Source: a virus
Lineage: Duplodnaviria; Heunggongvirae; Uroviricota; Caudoviricetes
Length of the DNA: 44,739 nt
Virus record (IMG/VR): IMGVR_UViG_647533158_000005
Reading direction: 5' to 3' (one strand)
A program made the position numbers and the translations under genes. The notes under the pieces are model-generated. The model saw nothing but the letters and a program-made list of their open reading frames with translations, did not search any database and was not told the origin of the DNA. Below are positions 3,867 through 42,000 of the stretch, one piece after another (position 1 is the stretch's first letter; the number at the start of each line of letters is the position of its first letter).

Positions 3867-4137
3867 TGATAAACCTCATAACTATTTTAAGTTGTATGAA
3901 CCCCTGCCATTTCAGGCATGCTTAATCAGTTGGTATGGCGTTAATATGGCTGGTGGGTTATCCAGCCGGTGTTTCGTTATTACAGAGATACTTTTTTTAA
4001 CGGGAGGCATTCGCCGGAAAATTTTTGCTCATCTCTTGTCTGAAGGCAGGTTGCCTTACTGTCATAAATTCCGGTAATCATATTCTGTGACTCACCTGCT
4101 GTAAGAAAAACCGTCATCACCAGTGCAAATGCCGAAG

Positions 4138-4323
4138 TCATCGCTGTTCTCCAAAAATGCCAAGTTGAAGAAGAGCAATTCTTGAAAGTATGGAATTATC
4201 ATTCAGAAGATAAGGCTCATATTTCCTCATATTAATGGCATCATCAGTGAAGTCTTTATTACTGAGCTGAATGCCAATATTAAAACAACCTTCAGACGTA
4301 TTAACGTTTGGTAATAACGTTTC
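4138..4323 (-). CDS. Hypothetical small protein (61 aa)
   Basis: Internal ATG of the 4138..4482 ORF preceded by GAGGA about 8 nt upstream; low-GC sequence; no recognisable motif. Confidence 0.25.
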   Translation of the reverse strand, partial: ETLLPNVNTSEGCFNIGIQLSNKDFTDDAINMRKYEPYLLNDNSILSRIALLQLGIFGEQR

Positions 4324-4897
4324 CATTATCGCGTCCTCAACAATGAATTTTGTGATGCAGTGCCTGGTGCCTCCAGGTGACGTTAACCAGTTAACAATTA
4401 ACGCCGGAATACATAAGAGGATACTTACGCCAGTAAAAGACCTCTTTACTGATTTAACTGTTCCGCGTGCGCATAGCCGCATTCACCGCATCACAAAATT
4501 CACTTTAAAAAGGGCGGCAGAGCAGTCACGGAGTAAAACTGATACCGCCAAATGTCACCAGAAAATTGATAACAGAGGGCGTTGCAGCGGGGTTGTCACT
4601 TAAGCGTATGGTCAACCTGACAACCCGGTGTCCTCAACGGGGAAGGAATAACCCCGCCATACTTACCGCCGCGCCATTTCGCGGAGTGCCGCAACCGGAA
4701 GCGCACGGTCGACGAAAATTTAACGACAGGCTATCTATGAACCAGCTACCTCGCCGTGCGCTTTCGCGTTATGGTCTGACTTTTCAGGGAAATATCCTTT
4801 CAGTAAACTGTCAGTGCCGGATGCTCACCCGTGTCCGGCGCACGCACTCCACCTCACCCGTGGAGAACTCCTTAATCACCAACCCTCAGGAGGGTGA

Positions 4898-5120
4898 AAT
4901 GGCTAGTAAAAATGTAAATATCCAGTTTAACCACGATGTTTCTCCTGCTGGACTTGCGGATGAACTCAGGGCTATAAAAACGGCAATTATGCTACTTGCT
5001 GCTAAGTTGCCAGCAGCATCACAACCATCAGATATTTGTGACTCATTACGTAAGATGAATTCAACAAAATGCAACGAGATGGCATCACTTATTGAAATAG
5101 CTATTGATTTTAATGATTAA
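4898..5120 (+). CDS. Hypothetical small protein (73 aa)
   Basis: ATG at 4898 preceded by GGAGGG Shine-Dalgarno (inside the longer 4566..5120 ORF whose 5' part looks non-coding); 3' end converges on the 5110..5502 ORF. Confidence 0.35.
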
Positions 5121-5502
5121 TTGATATTTCATTTTCATGCCTAACTGTAAAACAAGCATCCGAAGTGCAATACTTTAAATCACCAGAATTAATGGTGCAC
5201 TCAGTAAAATGGTTCTTAAGGGGTTCTATTCGAATCCCTTTATTTTTCATCAACAAACCAAGCCCCTTATTAATTATATCCATTAACTCCAAAAAGTATT
5301 TGTCAGGTGAGTCTTGGTTATCAGAGCTCTGCTTATCTTCGTACAGCCCGATAAAGGCTCGGCGCACGTTACCGGATATATTATCGATGGTTTCTTTTTC
5401 TACGGTACTCAGGTCAAGAGTCGCCAGTTGAGAACGAACTATATTCGATGCCATTTCCTGGAATGGTACTGGTAAATCTTTAAATTCCATCGTCAACCTC
5501 AT
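5110..5502 (-). CDS. Hypothetical protein (130 aa), low-GC accessory gene
   Basis: ORF with TGATG stop/start overlap to the upstream 76-aa ORF (translational coupling); about 38% GC versus about 50% for the phage backbone; no recognisable domain. Confidence 0.45.
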   Translation of the reverse strand: MRLTMEFKDLPVPFQEMASNIVRSQLATLDLSTVEKETIDNISGNVRRAFIGLYEDKQSSDNQDSPDKYFLELMDIINKGLGLLMKNKGIRIEPLKNHFTECTINSGDLKYCTSDACFTVRHENEISINH

Positions 5503-5732
5503 CAGTCAGTGTTTCTGGCTAACCAGCGACGCGCGCCAGATTCGGTTTTAAACGTTTTACTTTTGGTATACGTCATCGTAGTGAACGTACCGTCATGGTT
5601 GGGAAACACGCCGCACACCAGAGAATCGTTGTTGCTAAGATCGATAGTATCCATGCTGACCTCATTTCCCCTTAACGCCGGGGTAGCGGAACAAAAACCT
5701 GCTGCATAGTTAAAGTTGAACCCTGCCGTCAT
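5502..5732 (-). CDS. Hypothetical small protein (76 aa, or 50 aa from internal start at 5654)
   Basis: First gene leftward of the oL-like operator region; both candidate starts have GAGG Shine-Dalgarno; basic C-terminus. Confidence 0.35.
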   Translation of the reverse strand: MTAGFNFNYAAGFCSATPALRGNEVSMDTIDLSNNDSLVCGVFPNHDGTFTTMTYTKSKTFKTESGARRWLARNTD

Positions 5733-5836: not shown

Positions 5837-5874
5837 ATACCCATGGGTATTTAAAAAGTAAATACCTGTGGGTA
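5837..5874. promoter_or_regulatory. Putative leftward operator/promoter region (oL-like): two TACC-N4-GGTA palindromes
   Basis: atacccatgggtat (5837-5850, perfect palindrome) and tacctgtgggta (5863-5874), in the intergenic region 3' of the repressor gene. Confidence 0.45.
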
Positions 5875-5917
5875 ATTTTTTTGCGGTGTCTTAACTGGTG
5901 ACTGGTTGTTTGGTGAG

Positions 5918-6337
5918 CTATGATGCGTTTTGTGCTTTCTTTTTACGGATTTCTTCGTAGATCATATTGTAATACTGTTTTTTCTCTTCAAGAGTTTTTA
6001 ATAAGTTATCCGCTTCACTTTCTGGCAGTTCGTCTAAGAGATCTAAAAAAATACGTTGTCGTGGCGTTAGAACCCTTGTTTCATAACTGGAGGCTGTGTT
6101 CGTTGATGATGAAACGATACCATCCATCCATCCCCGGGGTAACCCAAAGGACTCTTCGATAATCTCCACCATATCATCAGCGATCCGTTTTTTTCCCTTT
6201 TTCCCCTCTGGGTACAACATTCTTGATACATAAGAAGGCTCGCGCCCGATCTTTCTGGCCACGTTAACCGCTTTACCATCGCATTTCTCATCACGAATTT
6301 TGATGAGTTGCTGTCGTCTAAATTCATATTTGTCCAT
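5918..6337 (-). CDS. Prophage repressor (short HTH repressor, RacR-like, no peptidase domain)
   Basis: 139-aa ORF divergent from a Cro-like gene across a 100-bp region containing three operator-like palindromes; N-terminal HTH-like segment (KAVNVARKIGREPSYVSRML). Confidence 0.65.
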   Translation of the reverse strand: MDKYEFRRQQLIKIRDEKCDGKAVNVARKIGREPSYVSRMLYPEGKKGKKRIADDMVEIIEESFGLPRGWMDGIVSSSTNTASSYETRVLTPRQRIFLDLLDELPESEADNLLKTLEEKKQYYNMIYEEIRKKKAQNAS

Positions 6338-6357: not shown

Positions 6358-6408
6358 TACCGCAAGGTAAACAACCTGTGGGTATTGACTTTTGTTTACC
6401 TGCAGGTA
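6358..6408. promoter_or_regulatory. Putative oR-like tripartite operator with divergent promoters
   Basis: taccgcaaggta (6358-6369), acctgtgggta (6374-6384), tacctgcaggta (6397-6408, perfect palindrome); TTGACT -35-like hexamer at 6385-6390 overlapping the operators. Confidence 0.5.
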
Positions 6409-6437: not shown

Positions 6438-6719
6438 ATGGAAGAATTAAGAATATTTCTCAATTCTCTTTCGTCAGATGAACAGCGTATGTTTGCATAC
6501 GAGTGTGGTACCAGCATCGGTTATCTAAGAAAGGCATTGAGTAAAGGTCAAGTGCTAGGGGCATCGTTATGTGTCCTTATTGAGCGAGCCAGTACTGGTG
6601 AAGTTACACGTCAGCAACTAAGGCCTTTTGATTGGATGAATATTTGGCCCGAGCTGGAAGATACCAAAACGTTAACACAACCATTTTCTAGGAGCTTGAT
6701 TCATGAAAATCAAGCATGA
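6438..6719 (+). CDS. Cro/YdaS-like small transcriptional regulator
   Basis: 93-aa ORF divergent from repressor; HTH-like segment (ECGTSIGYLRKALSKGQ); strong AGGAG Shine-Dalgarno; gene order as RacR-YdaS-YdaT. Confidence 0.65.
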   Translation: MEELRIFLNSLSSDEQRMFAYECGTSIGYLRKALSKGQVLGASLCVLIERASTGEVTRQQLRPFDWMNIWPELEDTKTLTQPFSRSLIHENQA

Positions 6720-7128
6720 GCACATCCGCATGGCGATGAATGCCTGGGCGTATCCGGACGGTGAAAAAGTTCCAGCAGCTGGAATAACCCAGGCTTATTT
6801 CGAACTGGGAATGACGTTCCCGGAACTGTACGACGACAGCCATCCGGAAGCCCTGGCTCGCAATACCCAGAAAATTTTCCGCTGGGTAGAGAAAGACACC
6901 CCTGATGCTGTTGAAAAAATTCAGGCGTTGTTACCAGCGATCGAAAAGGCAATGCCACCTTTGCTGGTGGCCAGAATGCGCAGCCACAGTTCAGCTTATT
7001 TTCGGGAGCTGGTGGAAACGCGGGAGCGATTGGTGAGAGACGCTGATGATTTTGTCGCAGTGGCAATCGCCGGTTTCAATCAGATGAACCGTGGTGGCCC
7101 GGCAGGAAATGCTGTGGCAGCACATTGA
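6703..7128 (+). CDS. CII-like regulator (YdaT family)
   Basis: 141-aa ORF overlapping the Cro-like stop; position and size as YdaT/CII in Rac-type immunity regions. Confidence 0.55.
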   Translation: MKIKHEHIRMAMNAWAYPDGEKVPAAGITQAYFELGMTFPELYDDSHPEALARNTQKIFRWVEKDTPDAVEKIQALLPAIEKAMPPLLVARMRSHSSAYFRELVETRERLVRDADDFVAVAIAGFNQMNRGGPAGNAVAAH

Positions 7129-9319: not shown

Positions 9320-9922
9320 TCAGGATACTTTTTCATGTACTGTCATGATAAATACCAGCGGGCTTTCTCCCTGATTTTCATAGAAATGAGGGACGTCTGT
9401 TCTGGCTGTTGCTGAACAGCCTGTTTTTACCAAATACTCGTGCTCCTGTATGCCCAGTGTGAGCGTACCCGATTGAACAAAAAACAGTTCAAGCGTTCCT
9501 TCCGTGTGGCCGGGGGAAGCAAATTTTTCCCCGGGCTGCATTTCCCACATCCAGAGCTCGGTCATATCAGGGCCACCGGAACCTGCGAGCAATCTTGCTT
9601 TCCCGCCTTTTTCACCTTCCCACAATTCAGGGATCTCACTTTCTGTAATGAGATGCACGGTCGGTTTGGAACTGACATCCACAAAATCAGCTACCGAAAC
9701 TCCCATCGCGGCAGCCAGGCGGCATAACATGGTAATGCTGGGATTCGCCCGGCATCCCTCTATCTCAACCAGCGCTCCCTTGCTGACGCCTGCTCGACGG
9801 GAGAGTTCATCAAGGGATATTTTCTTTTGCTTACGATAAAGTTTAATTCGCTGAGATACGGCTTCATTCACAGTGCTGACGATAGAATTTACATCGGTCA
9901 TTAAATTGACTTTTTTGGTCAT
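9320..9922 (-). CDS. XRE-family HTH transcriptional regulator with C-terminal cupin domain
   Basis: 200-aa ORF; N-terminal HTH (ISLDELSRRAGVSKGALVEIE) and C-terminal cupin-like beta-barrel region; divergent from B3/4-domain gene. Confidence 0.7.
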   Translation of the reverse strand: MTKKVNLMTDVNSIVSTVNEAVSQRIKLYRKQKKISLDELSRRAGVSKGALVEIEGCRANPSITMLCRLAAAMGVSVADFVDVSSKPTVHLITESEIPELWEGEKGGKARLLAGSGGPDMTELWMWEMQPGEKFASPGHTEGTLELFFVQSGTLTLGIQEHEYLVKTGCSATARTDVPHFYENQGESPLVFIMTVHEKVS

Positions 9923-18003: not shown

Positions 18004-19944
18004 ATGGCGTTTAAACATTACGATCTGGTTTCTGCCAGTAGCTGTGATGAACTGCAAAAAAAACTGGCAGAAAAAATAAGTGAAGGGTGGCAGCCATATA
18101 GTTCGCCGTTTACTTCGTATGACGATAACGGGATGAAGTTTATTCAGGCTGTTGCCGCAGAAGGTGAAGTCAGGGTTCCTGTTGAAGTTCCTGATGACGG
18201 TGATGGTTCACAGACCACAATTACCTCTGGTGCACCTGACTATTACTACGTGGTGGTACTCGCCGGCCAGTCCAACGGGATGGCCTACGGTGAAGGGCTT
18301 CCGTTACCGGATTCATTTGACCGTCCTGAACCGCGAATTAAACAACTGGCACGCCGCAGCACTGTGACGCCGGGCGGTACGCTGTGTAAATATAACGACC
18401 TTATTCAGGCAGACCACTGCCTGCATCATGTGCAGGACATGAGCGGGATAAACCACCCGAAAGCTGACCTGAGTAAAGGGCAGTATGGCTGTGTCGGTCA
18501 GGGGCTGCATATTGCCAAAAAACTTCTGCCTTATATTCCGCAGAATGCCGGGATACTTCTGGTTCCCTGCTGTCGTGGTGCTTCGGCATTCACCACCGGG
18601 GATGACGGCTCATTCAGTGAGGTCAGCGGTGCTTCCGCTGATTCTTCACGCTGGGGAGCCGGTAAACCCCTGTATCAGGACCTGCTCAGTCGCACCAGAG
18701 CGGCGCTGGCGAAGAACCCGAAAAATAAACTTCTGGCTGTGGTATGGATGCAGGGAGAGGCAGACCTTGCTTCAGGAAGTCAGCAGCATAATGGTTTATT
18801 CACAGCCATGGTTCAGCAGTTCAGAACCGACCTGTCTTCGCTTGCTGCGCAGTGCGTAAGTGGAAATGCTGCCACGGTGCCGTGGATTTGTGGTGATACC
18901 ACGTATTACTGGAAAAACACGTATGCCACGCAGTATGAAACAGTCTATGGCGCATATAAAAATCTGACCGCACAGAATATTTTCTTTGTGCCGTTCCTGA
19001 CGGATGAGAATGGACAGAACACGCCAACGAATGCTCCGGCGGAAGACCCGGATATTGTGGCTGTCGGGTATTACGGTGCGGCATCCCGTACCCAGGGCAG
19101 TTTTGTCTCCACACAGCGTGACAGCCATTTCAGCTCATGGGCACGCAGGGGCATCATTTCTGACCGTCTGGCCTCCGCTATTCTGCTCCATGCAGGGCGC
19201 ACGGCTGAACTGATGGGCGGGCAGGCCGTGACACCACCGGATGAGAAGCCGTCACCTGACACCCCGTCAGCGGACGGGAAATCAATGACAACGCTGCTTT
19301 CTTACCGGGCATCGGAGTCAGGCGGAGCACTGAAGTCACAGGGATGGGCGGCTGCCGGTGGGAGTGCCATTATTGTTGATGATGCCGGTGCCAGCGGGGG
19401 CAAGGCGCTGAAGCTGACAAAACAGACCGGAAAGTCATGGTTTATGCAGCATGATGCCGGTAATGGTGCTGACCTGCTGGAAAAAGGTGGCCTTGTCAGC
19501 TGTCGTTTTAAACTTGATGGCGCGCTTACGGCTAATCAGTACGCACTGGCGCTGTACTGGCCGGTTTCTTCGCTGCCTCAGGGCGTCACACTGGAAGGTA
19601 ATGCCGGTCATAACCTGCTGGCATCGTTTTACGTTCAGAGCGATGCCACAGACCTTAACGTGATGTACCACAAGGGTAATCCGGACCAGAACACGAAGCT
19701 GGGTTCATTCGGTGCATTTAATAACGAGTGGCATACGCTGGCATTCCGTTTTGCCGGTAATAACAGCATTCAGGTGACGCCGGTGATTGATGGTAAGGAC
19801 GGGACACCGTTCATGCTGTCGCAGTCTCCGGTAGGGACACTGGCGGCAGACAAGTTACGCCTGACAGATTTAACCAGTACGGCAACATATCCGGTGCTGA
19901 TTGACAGCATTTTGGTGGAAGTGAATAACCCGTCAGCAGGATAA
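18004..19944 (+). CDS. Prophage sialate O-acetylesterase-like protein (NanS-p family, SGNH/SASA domain)
   Basis: 646-aa ORF with GAGGA Shine-Dalgarno; VVLAGQSNG motif typical of SASA/SGNH esterases; size and position (upstream of lysis genes) match NanS-p of Stx phages. Confidence 0.75.
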   Translation: MAFKHYDLVSASSCDELQKKLAEKISEGWQPYSSPFTSYDDNGMKFIQAVAAEGEVRVPVEVPDDGDGSQTTITSGAPDYYYVVVLAGQSNGMAYGEGLPLPDSFDRPEPRIKQLARRSTVTPGGTLCKYNDLIQADHCLHHVQDMSGINHPKADLSKGQYGCVGQGLHIAKKLLPYIPQNAGILLVPCCRGASAFTTGDDGSFSEVSGASADSSRWGAGKPLYQDLLSRTRAALAKNPKNKLLAVVWMQGEADLASGSQQHNGLFTAMVQQFRTDLSSLAAQCVSGNAATVPWICGDTTYYWKNTYATQYETVYGAYKNLTAQNIFFVPFLTDENGQNTPTNAPAEDPDIVAVGYYGAASRTQGSFVSTQRDSHFSSWARRGIISDRLASAILLHAGRTAELMGGQAVTPPDEKPSPDTPSADGKSMTTLLSYRASESGGALKSQGWAAAGGSAIIVDDAGASGGKALKLTKQTGKSWFMQHDAGNGADLLEKGGLVSCRFKLDGALTANQYALALYWPVSSLPQGVTLEGNAGHNLLASFYVQSDATDLNVMYHKGNPDQNTKLGSFGAFNNEWHTLAFRFAGNNSIQVTPVIDGKDGTPFMLSQSPVGTLAADKLRLTDLTSTATYPVLIDSILVEVNNPSAG

Positions 19945-37919: not shown

Positions 37920-38994
37920 AAACGGGGGCTGAAGCCATCCGCGCACNNNNNNNNNNNNNNNNNNNNNNNNNNNNNNNNNNNNNNNNNNNNNNNNNNNNNN
38001 NNNNNNNNNNNNNNNNNNNNNNNNNNNNNNNNNNNNNNNNNNNNNNNNNNNNNNNNNNNNNNNNNNNNNNNNNNNNNNNNNNNNNNNNNNNNNNNNNNNN
38101 NNNNNNNNNNNNNNNNNNNNNNNNNNNNNNNNNNNNNNNNNNNNNNNNNNNNNNNNNNNNNNNNNNNNNNNNNNNNNNNNNNNNNNNNNNNNNNNNNNNN
38201 NNNNNNNNNNNNNNNNNNNNNNNNNNNNNNNNNNNNNNNNNNNNNNNNNNNNNNNNNNNNNNNNNNNNNNNNNNNNNNNNNNNNNNNNNNNNNNNNNNNN
38301 NNNNNNNNNNNNNNNNNNNNNNNNNNNNNNNNNNNNNNNNNNNNNNNNGGCGTCACCGGGCATGGCGCGAATCTGCCTTTACGGGGATTTACAACGATTT
38401 GGCCGCCGCATCGACCTGCGTGTGAAAACGGGGGCTGAAGCCATCCGCGCACTGGCCACACAGCTCCCGGTGTTTCGTCAGAAACTGAGCGACGGCTGGT
38501 ATCAGGTACGGATTGCCGGGCGGGACGTCAGCACGTTCGGGTTAACGGCGCAGTTACATGAGACTCTGCCTGATGGCGCTGTGATTCATATTGTTCCCAG
38601 AGTCGCCGGGGCCAAGTCAGGTGGCGTATTCCAGATTGTCCTGGGGGCTGCCGCCATTGCCGGATCATTCTTTACCGCCGGAGCCACCCTTGCAGCATGG
38701 GGGGCAGCCATTGGGGCCGGTGGTATGACCGGCATCCTGTTTTCTCTCGGTGCCAGTATGGTGCTCGGTGGTGTGGCGCAGATGCTGGCACCGAAAGCCA
38801 GAACTCCCCGTACACAGACAACGGATAACGGCAAACAGAACACCTATTTCTCCTCACTGGATAACATGGTTGCCCAGGGCAATGTTCTGCCGGTTCTGTA
38901 CGGTGAAATGCGCGTGGGGTCACGCGTGGTTTCTCAGGAGATCAGCACGGCAGACGAAGGGGATGGTGGTCAGGTTGTGGTGATTGGTCGCTGA
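37817..38994 (+). CDS. I: Tail assembly protein I (interrupted by assembly gap and duplicated flank)
   Basis: Starts MAATHTLPLASPGMARICLYGDLQRFGRR as lambda gpI; after the gap the same 104 nt recur and the frame continues to ...QVVVIGR; removing gap plus duplicate gives a 223-aa protein. Confidence 0.75.
37947..38348. other. Assembly gap (402 N)
   Basis: Run of n; identical 104-nt sequence on both sides (37843-37946 = 38349-38452). Confidence 0.95.
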
Positions 38995-39054: not shown

Positions 39055-42000
39055 ATGGGTAAAGGCAGCAGTAAGGGGCATACCCCGCGCGAAGCGAAGG
39101 ACAACCTGAAGTCCACGCAGCTGCTGAGTGTGATCGATGCCATCAGCGAAGGGCCGGTTGAAGGTCCGGTGGATGGATTAAAAAGCGTGCTGCTGAACAG
39201 TACGCCGGTGCTGGACAGTGAGGGGAATACCAATATATCCGGCGTCACGGTGGTGTTCCGGGCCGGTGAGCAGGAGCAGACACCGCCGGAGGGATTTGAA
39301 TCCTCCGGCTCCGAGACGGTGCTGGGTACGGAAGTGAAGTACGACACGCCGATTACCCGGACCATCACGTCTGCAAACATCGACCGTCTGCGCTTTACCT
39401 TCGGTGTGCAGGCACTGGTGGAAACCACCTCAAAGGGTGACAGGAATCCGTCGGAAGTCCGTCTGCTGGTTCAGATACAACGTAACGGTGGCTGGGTGAC
39501 GGAAAAAGACATCACCATTAAGGGCAAAACCACCTCGCAGTATCTGGCCTCGGTGGTGGTGGGTAACCTGCCGCCGCGCCCGTTTAATATCCGGATGTGC
39601 AGGATGACGCCGGACAGCACCACAGACCAGCTGCAGAACAAAACGCTCTGGTCGTCATACACCGAAATCATCGATGTGAAACAGTGCTACCCGAACACGG
39701 CACTGGTTGGCGTGCAGGTGGACTCGGAGCAGTTCGGCAGCCAGCAGGTGAGCCGTAATTATCATCTTCGCGGGCGCATTCTGCAGGTGCCGTCGAACTA
39801 TAACCCGCAGACACGGCAATACAGCGGTATCTGGGACGGAACGTTTAAGCCGGCATACAGCAACAACCCGGCCTGGTGTCTGTGGGATATGCTGACCCAC
39901 CCGCGCTACGGCATGGGGAAACGTCTTGGTGCGGCAGATGTGGATAAATGGGCGCTGTATGTCATCGGCCAGTACTGCGACCAGTCGGTGCCGGACGGCT
40001 TTGGCGGCACGGAGCCGCGCATCACCTGTAATGCGTACCTGACCACACAGCGCAAGGCGTGGGATGTGCTCAGTGATTTCTGCTCGGCGATGCGCTGTAT
40101 GCCGGTATGGAACGGGCAGACGCTGACGTTCGTGCAGGACCGGCCGTCGGATAAGGTGTGGACCTATAACCGCAGTAATGTGGTGATGCCGGATGATGGC
40201 GNNNNNNNNNNNNNNNNNNNNNNNNNNNNNNNNNNNNNNNNNNNNNNNNNNNNNNNNNNNNNNNNNNNNNNNNNNNNNNNNNNNNNNNNNNNNNNNNNNN
40301 NNNNNNNNNNNNNNNNNNNNNNNNNNNNNNNNNNNNNNNNNNNNNNNNNNNNNNNNNNNNNNNNNNNNNNNNNNNNNNNNNNNNNNNNNNNNNNNNNNNN
40401 NNNNNNNNNNNNNNNNNNNNNNNNNNNNNNNNNNNNNNNNNNNNNNNNNNNNNNNNNNNNNNNNNNNNNNNNNNNNNNNNNNNNNNNNNNNNNNNNNNNN
40501 NNNNNNNNNNNNNNNNNNNNNNNNNNNNNNNNNNNNNNNNNNNNNNNNNNNNNNNNNNNNNNNNNNNNNNNNNNNNNNNNNNNNNNNNNNNNNNNNNNNN
40601 NNNNNNNNNNNNNNNNNNNNNNNNNNNNNNNNNNNNNNNNNNNNNNNNNNNNNNNNNNNNNNNNNNNNNNNNNNNNNNNNNNNNNNNNNNNNNNNNNNNN
40701 NNNNNNNNNNNNNNNNNNNNNNNNNNNNNNNNNNNNNNNNNNNNNNNNNNNNNNNNNNNNNNNNNNNNNNNNNNNNNNNNNNNNNNNNNNNNNNNNNNNN
40801 NNNNNNNNNNNNNNNNNNNNNNNNNNNNNNNNNNNNNNNNNNNNNNNNNNNNNNNNNNNNNNNNNNNNNNNNNNNNNNNNNNNNNNNNNNNNNNNNNNNN
40901 NNNNNNNNNNNNNNNNNNNNNNNNNNNNNNNNNNNNNNNNNNNNNNNNNNNNNNNNNNNNNNNNNNNNNNNNNNNNNNNNNNNNNNNNNNNNNNNNNNNN
41001 NNNNNNNNNNNNNNNNNNNNNNNNNNNNNNNNNNNNNNNNNNNNNNNNNNNNNNNNNNNNNNNNNNNNNNNNNNNNNNNNNNNNNNNNNNNNNNNNNNNN
41101 NNNNNNNNNNNNNNNNNNNNNNNNNNNNNNNNNNNNNNNNNNNNNNNNNNNGGACAGCAGGGCGAACCGGCATCGGTATCGTTCCGGATTGCCGCACCGG
41201 CAGCGCCTGCCACCATTGAACTGATACCGGGGTATTTTCAGATAACGGCGGTCCCGAAACTGGCGGTATATGACCCGACGGTGCAGTTTGAGTTCTGGTT
41301 CTCGGAAAAGCGGATTGCGGAAATCAGGCAGGTTGAAACCACAGCCCGCTATCTTGGCACGGCGCTGTACTGGATAGCCGCCAGTATCAATATCAGGCCA
41401 GGCCATGATTATTATTTTTACGTTCGCAGTGTTAACACCGTGGGTAAGTCGGCATTTGTGGAGGCCGTCGGTCAGCCCAGCGATGATGCGGAAGGTTATC
41501 TTAATTTTTACAAGGGGCTGATTAATAAAACGCATCTTGGCAGGGAACTGCTGGAGAATTTCGAACTGACAGAGGATAACGCCAGCAGGCTTGATGAGTT
41601 CACGAAACAGTGGAAAGACGCTAACGATAAATGGAATGCCATGTGGGGCGTCAAAATTGAGCAGACCGAAGACGGTAAACATTATGTTGCCGGGATTGGC
41701 CTCAGCATGGAGGAGACGGAAGAAGGAAAACTGAGCGAGTTTCTTGTCGCCGCCAACCGTATCGCGTTTATTGACCCGGCAAACGGTAACTCAACGCCGA
41801 TGTTTGTGGCACAGGGCGATCAGATATTCATGAACGACGTGTTCCTGAAACGCCTGACGGCTCCCACCATTACCAGCGGCGGTAATCCCCCTGCATTTTC
41901 CCTGACTCCGGACGGAAAGCTGACCGCTAAAAATGCGGATATCAGCGGCAGTATCACCGCCAGTTCAGGCACGCTCAACAATGTGACGATAAACCAGGAC

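Follow-up and report, generated by a model that had tools for sequence, protein, structure and literature searches.

The stretch between the exonuclease and the repressor of the prophage analysed here (positions 4138-5732 of the window, the whole 44,739-nucleotide stretch of DNA studied), together with the adjoining ydfD homologue, is judged from its sequence to be, with little doubt, the dicBF early-left (PL-type) operon of a Qin/Rac-like lambdoid prophage. The dicBF operon is already known and, of the genes in the patch, only p73 and p126 are without a characterised role. The original prediction had described the patch as four small open reading frames of no recognisable family; two of the four match PF05358 (DicB) and PF07151 (DUF1391), and the DicF small RNA within the patch and the DUF1482/YdfD gene adjoining it at 3980-4141 had escaped notice. 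The features of the region are as follows.

3980..4141, minus strand: ydfD homologue (DUF1482), 53 aa; PF07358, E 1.5e-13, 50.9 bits against a cutoff of 25
4138..4326, minus strand: dicB, cell-division inhibitor family, 62 aa; PF05358, E 2.4e-33, 114.1 bits against a cutoff of 27
4327..4511, minus strand: dicF-dicB spacer, the dicB 5' UTR; homologous to K-12
4512..4563, minus strand: DicF sRNA with its Rho-independent terminator; Rfam RF00039, 77 bits against a gathering threshold of 48, E 2e-16
4564..4884, minus strand: structured leader, DicF precursor region; homologous to the K-12 ydfC-dicF spacer
4899..5120, plus strand: p73, gene for a small helical protein of 73 aa, opposite to the operon; phrog_7249, E 5e-45
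5110..5490, minus strand: p126, hypothetical; phrog_6937, E 1e-66
5502..5654, minus strand: ydfA homologue (DUF1391), most likely 50 aa, first gene of the operon; PF07151, E 8e-26
5838..5876, minus strand: OL-like operator pair with a PL/dicBp-like promoter; exact motif at 5838 and 5863
5918..6337, minus strand: repressor, CI/DicA analogue, 139 aa; phrog_5736 ('transcriptional regulator'), E 4e-70
6358..6408, no strand assigned: OR-like operator cluster of three TACC-N4-GGTA palindromes; exact motif at 6358 and 6397, one mismatch at 6373
12963-13784: Q antiterminator

The order of the features, read leftward, is repressor, ydfA-like gene, p126, leader, dicF, dicB, ydfD-like gene and exonuclease-xis-int. 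The succession of dicF, dicB and ydfD and the orientation of the repressor match the annotated Qin locus of K-12 (dicA-ydfA-...-dicF-dicB-ydfD-ydfE(exonuclease)-int), and the two loci are alike in the arrangement of repressor, operon, exonuclease and int, in the order of ydfA, dicF, dicB and ydfD and in the overlap of dicB and ydfD by 4 nt. BLASTN comparison with K-12 gave 92% DNA identity over 4222-4884, which covers the dicB N-terminus, dicF and the leader, and 90% DNA identity for ydfA. Homology to K-12 is absent from 4885-5510 of the window; ydfB and ydfC, present in Qin, are missing and p126 and the inverted p73 stand in their place. In another related locus, L085, ydfB and ydfC occur alongside the p124/p73 pair. 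The repressor and operators of the two prophages are of different immunity specificity, and Qin is a 20-kb remnant, whereas the present prophage looks full-length, with genes from the integrase through Q, lysis, head and tail.

The dicBF locus has been described in many prophages, with a list of DicF targets and with ydfB variable across loci (PMC5069750). Part of the present region was matched in 4755 of 5426 complete E. coli genomes, and the homologous block of E. coli STEC299 carries the RefSeq names DicB, DUF1482 and DUF1391. The same arrangement was observed in 80 IMG/VR prophage contigs, all of which keep the order DUF1391, p124/126 and dicB/DUF1482 as far as the contig reaches, with a dicF match in 53 of them. 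It also occurs in deposited phage records of PPompW, Stx and Tritos type; in one of these records DicB and DicF are both annotated. Among these EHEC-type prophages and phages (PPompW, Stx2, Tritos), the block from DUF1482 through dicB and dicF to the leader has 91-93% DNA identity to the window; the records annotate a 'cell division inhibition protein', to which Tritos adds the DicF sRNA.

The identification of dicB is additionally supported by NF049927 (105.1 bits against a cutoff of 100), both DicB profile matches being full-length. The protein is 84-87% identical to variants in other prophages and 64% identical to K-12 DicB across 55 aa, with a divergent C-terminus. Its frame is 62 aa in length, not 61 as first given; the coordinates of the four predicted frames, 4138-4326 (minus), 4899-5120 (plus), 5110-5502 (minus) and 5502-5732 (minus), were otherwise reproduced. 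The ydfD homologue overlaps the dicB stop (4138-4141), as in K-12, and lies outside the coordinates originally delimited. It is more diverged from its K-12 counterpart (41% identity over 51 aa) and, with 53 residues against 63, is missing the C-terminal 10 residues; in K-12 YdfD, removal of just 1-5 residues from the C-terminus is enough to weaken lysis (PMC8835842).

The DicF sequence matches RF00039 over the full length of the model, lies upstream of dicB on the same strand and differs from that of K-12 by one substitution (51 of 52 nt the same), the T-run and flanks being identical; its terminator consists of GCCGCCC followed by TTTTT. The leader is strongly structured, with a folding energy of -152.7 kcal/mol (z = -2.6) for 4490-4900. 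In the spacer between dicF and dicB, a match to the Rfam family STnc100 was sub-threshold (32 bits against a gathering threshold of 47).

The YdfA homologue is 84% identical to K-12 YdfA at the protein level. Its open frame reaches 5732, which would give the 76 aa first proposed. The 26-codon N-terminal extension carries an in-frame stop in L001, a prophage with the same repressor, and falls outside the homology to K-12 ydfA; Met27 at 5654 is therefore the most likely start, for a product of about 50 aa. The TGATG overlap noted at 5500-5504 does exist but, given this start, is probably incidental as a coupling signal, the actual gap between the ydfA homologue and p126 being 11 nt. The start of p126 probably also lies downstream of that predicted: both the PHROG profiles and RefSeq, in annotating a homologue of 97% identity, begin the protein at the fifth codon of the 130-aa frame (5490), with GAGG 6 nt upstream, which gives about 126 aa. 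The predicted size of p73 (73 aa) stood unchanged.

The 139-aa repressor shows weak similarity to DicA, in its C-terminal part (NF007257, 23.9 bits against a cutoff of 101), and on this sequence comparison it is not a DicA orthologue; a Pfam peptidase S24 domain was not found in it. The motif TACCNNNNGGTA has four exact matches in the 44.7-kb window, all flanking the repressor gene (two OL-like, two OR-like), a number reached in none of 100 shuffles. A search for operators with TACCNNNNGGGTA and two mismatches proved too permissive to be informative, and the exact-motif search was used instead. Divergent promoter-like sites for the repressor and the cro-like gene, TTGACT-16-TATTCT (plus) and TTTACC-16-TATTAT (minus), overlap the OR-like cluster. 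The PL-like hexamers TTTACT-17-TATCCT (minus) were read by eye and failed a consensus scan.

The identity and order of the parts and the layout of the operators can be read in the window; the account of regulation, RNA processing and protein activities that follows is taken from the K-12 literature. As the repressor and operators differ from those of Qin, regulation of the operon is proposed by analogy with Qin. In K-12, DicA and DicC resemble CI and Cro, dicBp resembles lambda PL, and the transcript is processed by RNase E as well as RNase III (PMC10448788). In the lysogen, the 139-aa repressor would bind the two TACC-N4-GGTA operators at 5838-5876 and silence the leftward promoter. Derepression would yield one transcript running through the ydfA-like gene, p126, the structured leader, dicF, dicB and the ydfD-like gene and onward into exonuclease-xis-int. 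By homology with K-12, DicF together with Hfq would block translation of ftsZ, xylR, pykA and manX, and DicB would bind MinC and bring it to the septum, with depolymerisation of FtsZ and filamentation as the outcome. DicB may also inhibit ManYZ, which would leave lambda-type phages unable to inject their DNA; in the published system of DicB, MinC and ManYZ, DicB blocks ManYZ-dependent DNA entry and confers about 100-fold resistance to lambda (PMC6832061). Binding of MinC and ManYZ by the present DicB is an extrapolation from K-12, and the 64% identity and divergent C-terminus weigh against it. The YdfD-like protein may act as an inhibitor of IspG and favour lysis among dividing cells, as suggested by homology with K-12, where YdfD and IspG have been linked to lysis (PMC8835842).

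In phage lambda, the early-left slot carries N, ral, sieB and kil. The present operon occupies the same slot and follows the same logic of repressor-controlled early-left genes acting on the host, and Kil of lambda and Rac is like DicB in that formation of the FtsZ ring is stopped; one related E. coli locus has kil beside a dicB remnant. Lambda N, Ral, SieB, Rex and Kil have no sequence relationship to the patch. The earlier view that no N-like antiterminator is evident is consistent with the searches, as no N-family match was obtained for any ORF of the patch in Pfam, PHROGs or NCBIfam, and DUF1391 is the first gene.

It is improbable that the patch constitutes an unrecognised exclusion or anti-defence gene set comparable to rex, sieB and ral, possibly a new system. 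Its location between exonuclease and repressor and its leftward direction do fit such a slot, p73 and p126 are without functional annotation in any library, and DicB has a published exclusion activity (PMC6832061). The GC content is also lower than that of the window as a whole (43.8% versus 49.8%), at about the 15th percentile among windows of the same size, which is an upper bound since two masked N runs count as low GC; the depression is, however, patchy, with 34% in dicB, 37% in each of p73 and p126 and 47-48% in DUF1391 but 54% in dicF and 55% in the leader. Against this reading, two of the four ORFs and the overlooked sRNA belong to the known dicBF operon, which refutes it for the patch as a whole, and the one exclusion activity of the patch is already in the literature. 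None of six proteins was matched by the PADLOC defence-system models at E <= 0.1. The premise of novel genes was hence mistaken; clear homology to known lambdoid early genes, named in the original prediction as evidence that would speak against it, was found in dicBF. The pair of genes at 5110-5732 that had been proposed for challenge with phages corresponds to the YdfA homologue and p126, and does not include DicB.

Within the dicBF operon, p126 is a gene in the sense of the operon, widespread in E. coli prophages and without a K-12 counterpart. About 55 aa at its N-terminus form a conserved domain (MEFKDLP...NVRxAFxGLY), followed by a C-terminal part that varies. The N-terminus also matches phrog_1363, phrog_2151 and phrog_9419, and deposited phage records have this domain only, joined to other C-termini. 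An identical protein is recorded in E. coli as 'hypothetical', and an exhaustive HMMER search against 1.8 billion representative proteins retrieved solely Escherichia-type relatives and proteins sharing the N-terminal domain. Substitutions are distributed 13/11/31 over the three codon positions, a third-position bias. The AlphaFold2 (AF2) model has a mean pLDDT of 62; a helical hairpin at the N-terminus reaches about 85, and residues 85-126 stay below 50.

The second gene, p73, sits in an inserted segment of about 247 bp (4863-5109) that most dicBF loci are without: p73 was present in 3 of 82 related loci (L001 and L081 in the scan, and L085, examined afterwards), and no close homologue was found in deposited phage records. 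An identical protein is the RefSeq hypothetical WP_000157196. The AF2 model has a mean pLDDT of 66. Searches for the function of p73 and p126 gave empty results in Pfam, NCBIfam and PADLOC, even when every aligned member was included and the limit was E <= 1, and families of 'unknown function' only in PHROGs. Their profiles retrieved nothing below E = 0.1 among PDB sequences, and Foldseek gave no match with E < 1 in PDB (p126) or BFVD (p73), the AF2 models being of modest confidence.

A chance origin of the p73 frame, as an antisense ORF in a region that is really operon RNA left untranslated or coding for a small peptide on the sense strand, appears unlikely. Gene callers seldom report p73, which is found in a handful of protein clusters; the 84 nt upstream, a segment conserved in Salmonella, yielded no promoter; and as the antisense frame shares wobble positions, a third-position bias by itself is not decisive. 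Nevertheless, the plus-strand frame runs without a stop from end to end in five homologues, the most distant at 33% identity, which come from Escherichia, a Salmonella island and a Salmonella phage, while the alternative on the sense strand meets three stops in Salmonella and one in phage 118970_sal3. Against the Salmonella homologue, codon changes in the p73 frame number 24 synonymous to 20 non-synonymous, none of the other frames does better than 16:28, and a strong AGGAGG stands 6 nt before the ATG. The conserved element upstream of p73 is a hairpin that also occurs in loci without p73. Another hairpin, at 5218-5240 (plus), was considered as a p73 terminator and rejected, because it lies inside the p126 coding sequence and is equally conserved where p73 is absent.

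Regarded here as a real gene under selective constraint, p73 is separately mobile and inserted in inverted orientation, and therefore probably has its own expression signals. It is opposite to its neighbours in three unrelated contexts, the E. coli lambdoid prophage, a Salmonella Cox/integrase island and Salmonella phage 118970_sal3. A tentative suggestion, of rather low probability, is that p73 is a self-contained moron expressed in the lysogen and inserted, on each occasion against the early-left operon, into at least three unrelated temperate elements, encoding a three-helix protein that may be a new exclusion or anti-defence factor; alternatively, the gene may serve as a damper, its convergent transcription reducing leaky expression of the toxic dicF, dicB and ydfD. 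The 129-aa Salmonella neighbour of p73 was examined as a possible relative of p126 and found to be unrelated (E 6.6).

That p73 and p126 form a functional pair, such as a toxin-antitoxin or abortive-infection system with overlapping 3' ends, is very unlikely: the convergent 3' overlap described earlier is confirmed (11 nt at 5110-5120) and the two genes co-occur in the window and in L001, L081, L085 and L087, but a p126 homologue is kept in 79 of 79 IMG/VR loci lacking p73, only about 88 E. coli genomes span both genes as against about 1858 that match the cassette, p73 in Salmonella adjoins unrelated genes, the p73 insertion ends on its right within sequence shared by loci that lack p73, and toxin-antitoxin and defence families match neither protein.

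The value of the locus as a discovery is small, since the operon, its sRNA, the division inhibitor and the exclusion activity are all published and the locus is present in most E. coli genomes. A low-GC patch that seemed to have no family is a textbook locus, which illustrates how an sRNA gene and small Pfam families can be overlooked when only the sequence is read. Here the dicBF block is found in an apparently complete lambdoid prophage, and two small genes under constraint occupy the variable cassette between ydfA and dicF, p126 with its widely shared N-terminal domain and the mobile, inverted p73.

The segment 4138-5732, for which the original prediction had recognised no gene family, corresponds by homology to the dicBF operon, the early-left operon of the E. 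coli K-12 cryptic prophage Qin. The features concerned are as follows.

4138-4326, minus strand: ORF of 62 aa
4899-5120, plus strand: ORF of 73 aa (p73)
5110-5502, minus strand: ORF of 130 aa
5502-5732, minus strand: ORF of 76 aa
3980-4141: DUF1482/YdfD family gene (Pfam), abutting the patch just outside its limits
4512-4563, minus strand: full-length DicF small RNA (Rfam, 77 bits; gathering score 48)

The first four were the ORFs of the original prediction and all were found, with the TGATG junction (5500-5504) and the 11-nt convergent overlap (5110-5120) legible in the sequence; DicF, the central element of the patch, had been overlooked. The 4138-4326 product is DicB (Pfam PF05358, 114 bits; also above the cutoff of the NCBIfam DicB model) and that of 5502-5732 belongs to the DUF1391 (YdfA) family. 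DicF has a single base difference from K-12 dicF, with an identical terminator T-run and flanks. The annotated order in Qin is dicA-ydfA-ydfB-ydfC-dicF-dicB-ydfD-ydfE(exonuclease)-intQ, and that on the minus strand here is repressor, ydfA-like gene, p126, leader, dicF, dicB, ydfD-like gene, 814-aa exonuclease, xis and int. Blastn identity with K-12 is 92% over 4222-4884, which spans the dicB N-terminus and 5' UTR, dicF and the ydfC-dicF leader, and 90% over ydfA. Part of the region was matched in 4755 of 5426 complete E. coli genomes, where the RefSeq labels under the best matches are DicB, DUF1482, DUF1391 and YdfC, and the phage records PPompW, Stx2 and Tritos carry the same block at 91-93% identity, both DicB and DicF being annotated in Tritos. 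Because the patch is thus homologous to known lambdoid early genes, the finding that the prediction itself had named as telling against novelty, its reading as novel is refuted. The predicted lack of an N-like protein held as far as family searches reach. A sub-threshold Rfam match to STnc100, a Salmonella sRNA candidate (4294-4514, minus strand; 32 bits, gathering score 47), spans the dicF-dicB spacer and the first dicB codons; in Salmonella prophages, STnc100 may correspond to this kind of dicB-type 5' UTR.

The low GC content ascribed to the patch was borne out in its mean (43.8% against 49.8% for the window), but this is about the 15th percentile among windows of equal size and is patchy, dicB, p73 and p126 having 34%, 37% and 37%, and dicF and its leader 54% and 55%. 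Masked runs of N at 37947-38348 (402 bases) and 40202-41151 (950 bases), in the tail/host-specificity region, give rise to zero-GC windows, and to long ORFs spanning them, that are artefacts.

Two gene models would be shorter than the ORFs. The 130-aa ORF is probably a 126-aa gene starting at 5490 (p126): PHROG profiles match it from residue 5, the same residue is the RefSeq start of a 97% identical homologue in E. coli STEC299, and GAGG lies 6 nt 5' of the ATG at 5490. The product of the 76-aa ORF is most likely a 50-aa protein starting at 5654, since the Pfam DUF1391 profile covers only residue 28 onward, K-12 ydfA homology (blastn) begins 38 nt 5' of Met27, and, in a prophage whose repressor is 99% identical, the 26-codon extension is interrupted by an in-frame stop and contains indels.

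The control region accounts for every exact match to the 12-bp palindrome TACC-N4-GGTA in the 44.7-kb window: there are four, all flanking the repressor gene, a count reached in none of 100 shuffles.

5838 and 5863: exact operator palindromes, operon side of the repressor
6358 and 6397: exact operator palindromes, cro side, with a one-mismatch copy at 6373

This arrangement is, by analogy, the OL/OR layout of a lambdoid immunity region. A putative leftward promoter, TTTACT-17-TATCCT as read by eye, overlaps the OL pair; the motif failed a consensus promoter scan. Since the repressor is a phrog_5736 member with weak similarity to DicA in the C-terminal part only, the predicted immunity specificity differs from that of Qin, the organisation being alike. 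At the cro and cII positions (6438-7128, plus strand) lie YdaS-like (PF15943, weak) and YdaT-like (PF06254) proteins, Rac-type genes termed 'toxins' in Pfam annotation.

The element appears to be complete, with genes running from the integrase to the tail fibres, and the last three genes listed are a set usual for EHEC-type lambdoid prophages.

9320-9922, minus strand: HTH_3 and Cupin_2 regulator
9966-10661, plus strand: B3_4-domain protein
12963-13784: Q antiterminator (PF03589), downstream of the patch
15230-16288: DNA methylase
18004-19944: NanS-p-like esterase (DUF1737, SASA and DUF6645)

The first two, flanked by the replication module and the DUF968/Q region, form a divergent pair that looks like cargo rather than a core phage function.

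The regulation, RNA processing and protein activities of the operon would be those described for K-12, in which dicBp, a lambda PL-like promoter, is under DicA repression and DicF represses ftsZ, xylR, pykA and manX. DicB brings MinC to the septum, blocking division, and by the same interaction inhibits ManYZ, which makes cells about 100-fold resistant to lambda and to other phages that depend on ManYZ (PMC6832061). The exclusion role proposed for the patch therefore stands solely as this published activity of DicB. YdfD binds IspG and lyses dividing cells, an effect counteracted by DicB and already lowered by small C-terminal YdfD deletions (PMC8835842). DicB here is 64% identical to that of K-12, differing in the last ~10 residues; the YdfD homologue has 41% identity to its K-12 counterpart and is shorter by 10 residues. 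The 411-nt leader and dicF segment folds significantly better than shuffled controls (z = -2.6), which fits a processed precursor RNA. The leader (4815-4862) has two adjacent hairpins (~4816-4845 and ~4849-4867), both with GGGTGAG in the loop on the operon strand; the first, also present in loci without p73, is the sole upstream element conserved between the p73 loci of E. coli and those of Salmonella, and could represent a recombination junction or serve in RNA processing or antitermination.

The interval 4885-5510, holding p126 and p73, gave no blastn match to K-12 and appears to have no counterpart there. Two prophages of E. coli STEC299 (L087, 1849478-1857100, and L001) share the exonuclease-DUF1482-dicB-p73-p126-DUF1391 block and differ in their immunity regions, one having a relBE toxin-antitoxin pair between repressor and DUF1391; dicF is annotated in neither, and a short-word blastn search of L001 failed to detect it. 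A locus of E. coli FDAARGOS_1077 (L085) carries ydfA, ydfB and ydfC together with a p124/p73 pair, which argues that p126/p73 are additions to ydfB/ydfC and not strict replacements; downstream of the pair come a truncated dicB and a kil gene of Rac type, indicating an exchange of division inhibitors at this site.

The p126 product is an Escherichia-restricted hypothetical protein, with an identical sequence on record. In every one of the 80 IMG/VR loci retrieved with p126, its homologue comes after the DUF1391 gene, directly and with a 14-nt gap in 72, and dicF lies ~310 nt downstream in the 53 where it was detected. Substitutions against three homologues favour the third codon position (e.g. 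13/11/31). The first ~55 residues (MEFKDLP...NVRxAFxGLY) occur joined to many unrelated C-terminal parts, among them some in early-left regions of Stx phages; AlphaFold2 models them as a helical hairpin (pLDDT ~85) and gave no confident fold for the C-terminal part.

Judged by its conservation, p73 is a genuine gene: five homologues, down to 33% identity, all keep the frame open, and of the codon changes against the Salmonella homologue 24 are synonymous and 20 non-synonymous. It lies on a ~247-bp insertion (4863-5109) relative to most dicBF loci. Homologues of p73 are oriented against the surrounding genes in three unrelated settings, namely this operon, a Cox/integrase island of Salmonella (L083) and, in its early-left region, Salmonella phage 118970_sal3. 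A promoter was looked for upstream and none was found. Its structure is modelled, at modest confidence, as a three-helix bundle. The operon-sense frame, whose wobble positions are common to the p73 frame, was rejected as the coding frame, since stops interrupt it in the copies from Salmonella and its ratio is worse (16:28). Both genes occur together in only ~88 genomes, against 1858 matching some part of the cassette, and are not an obligate pair. In some other E. coli and E. marmotae genomes (proteins P0125 and P0126) the last 24 p73 codons are joined to an ORF that runs antisense to the region upstream of dicB, the product of deletions that took out dicF, the leader and most of p73. Searches of family, solved-structure, fold and defence-system resources gave no match for p126 or p73, and the functions of p126 and of the mobile, inverted p73 constitute a modest lead rather than a discovery.
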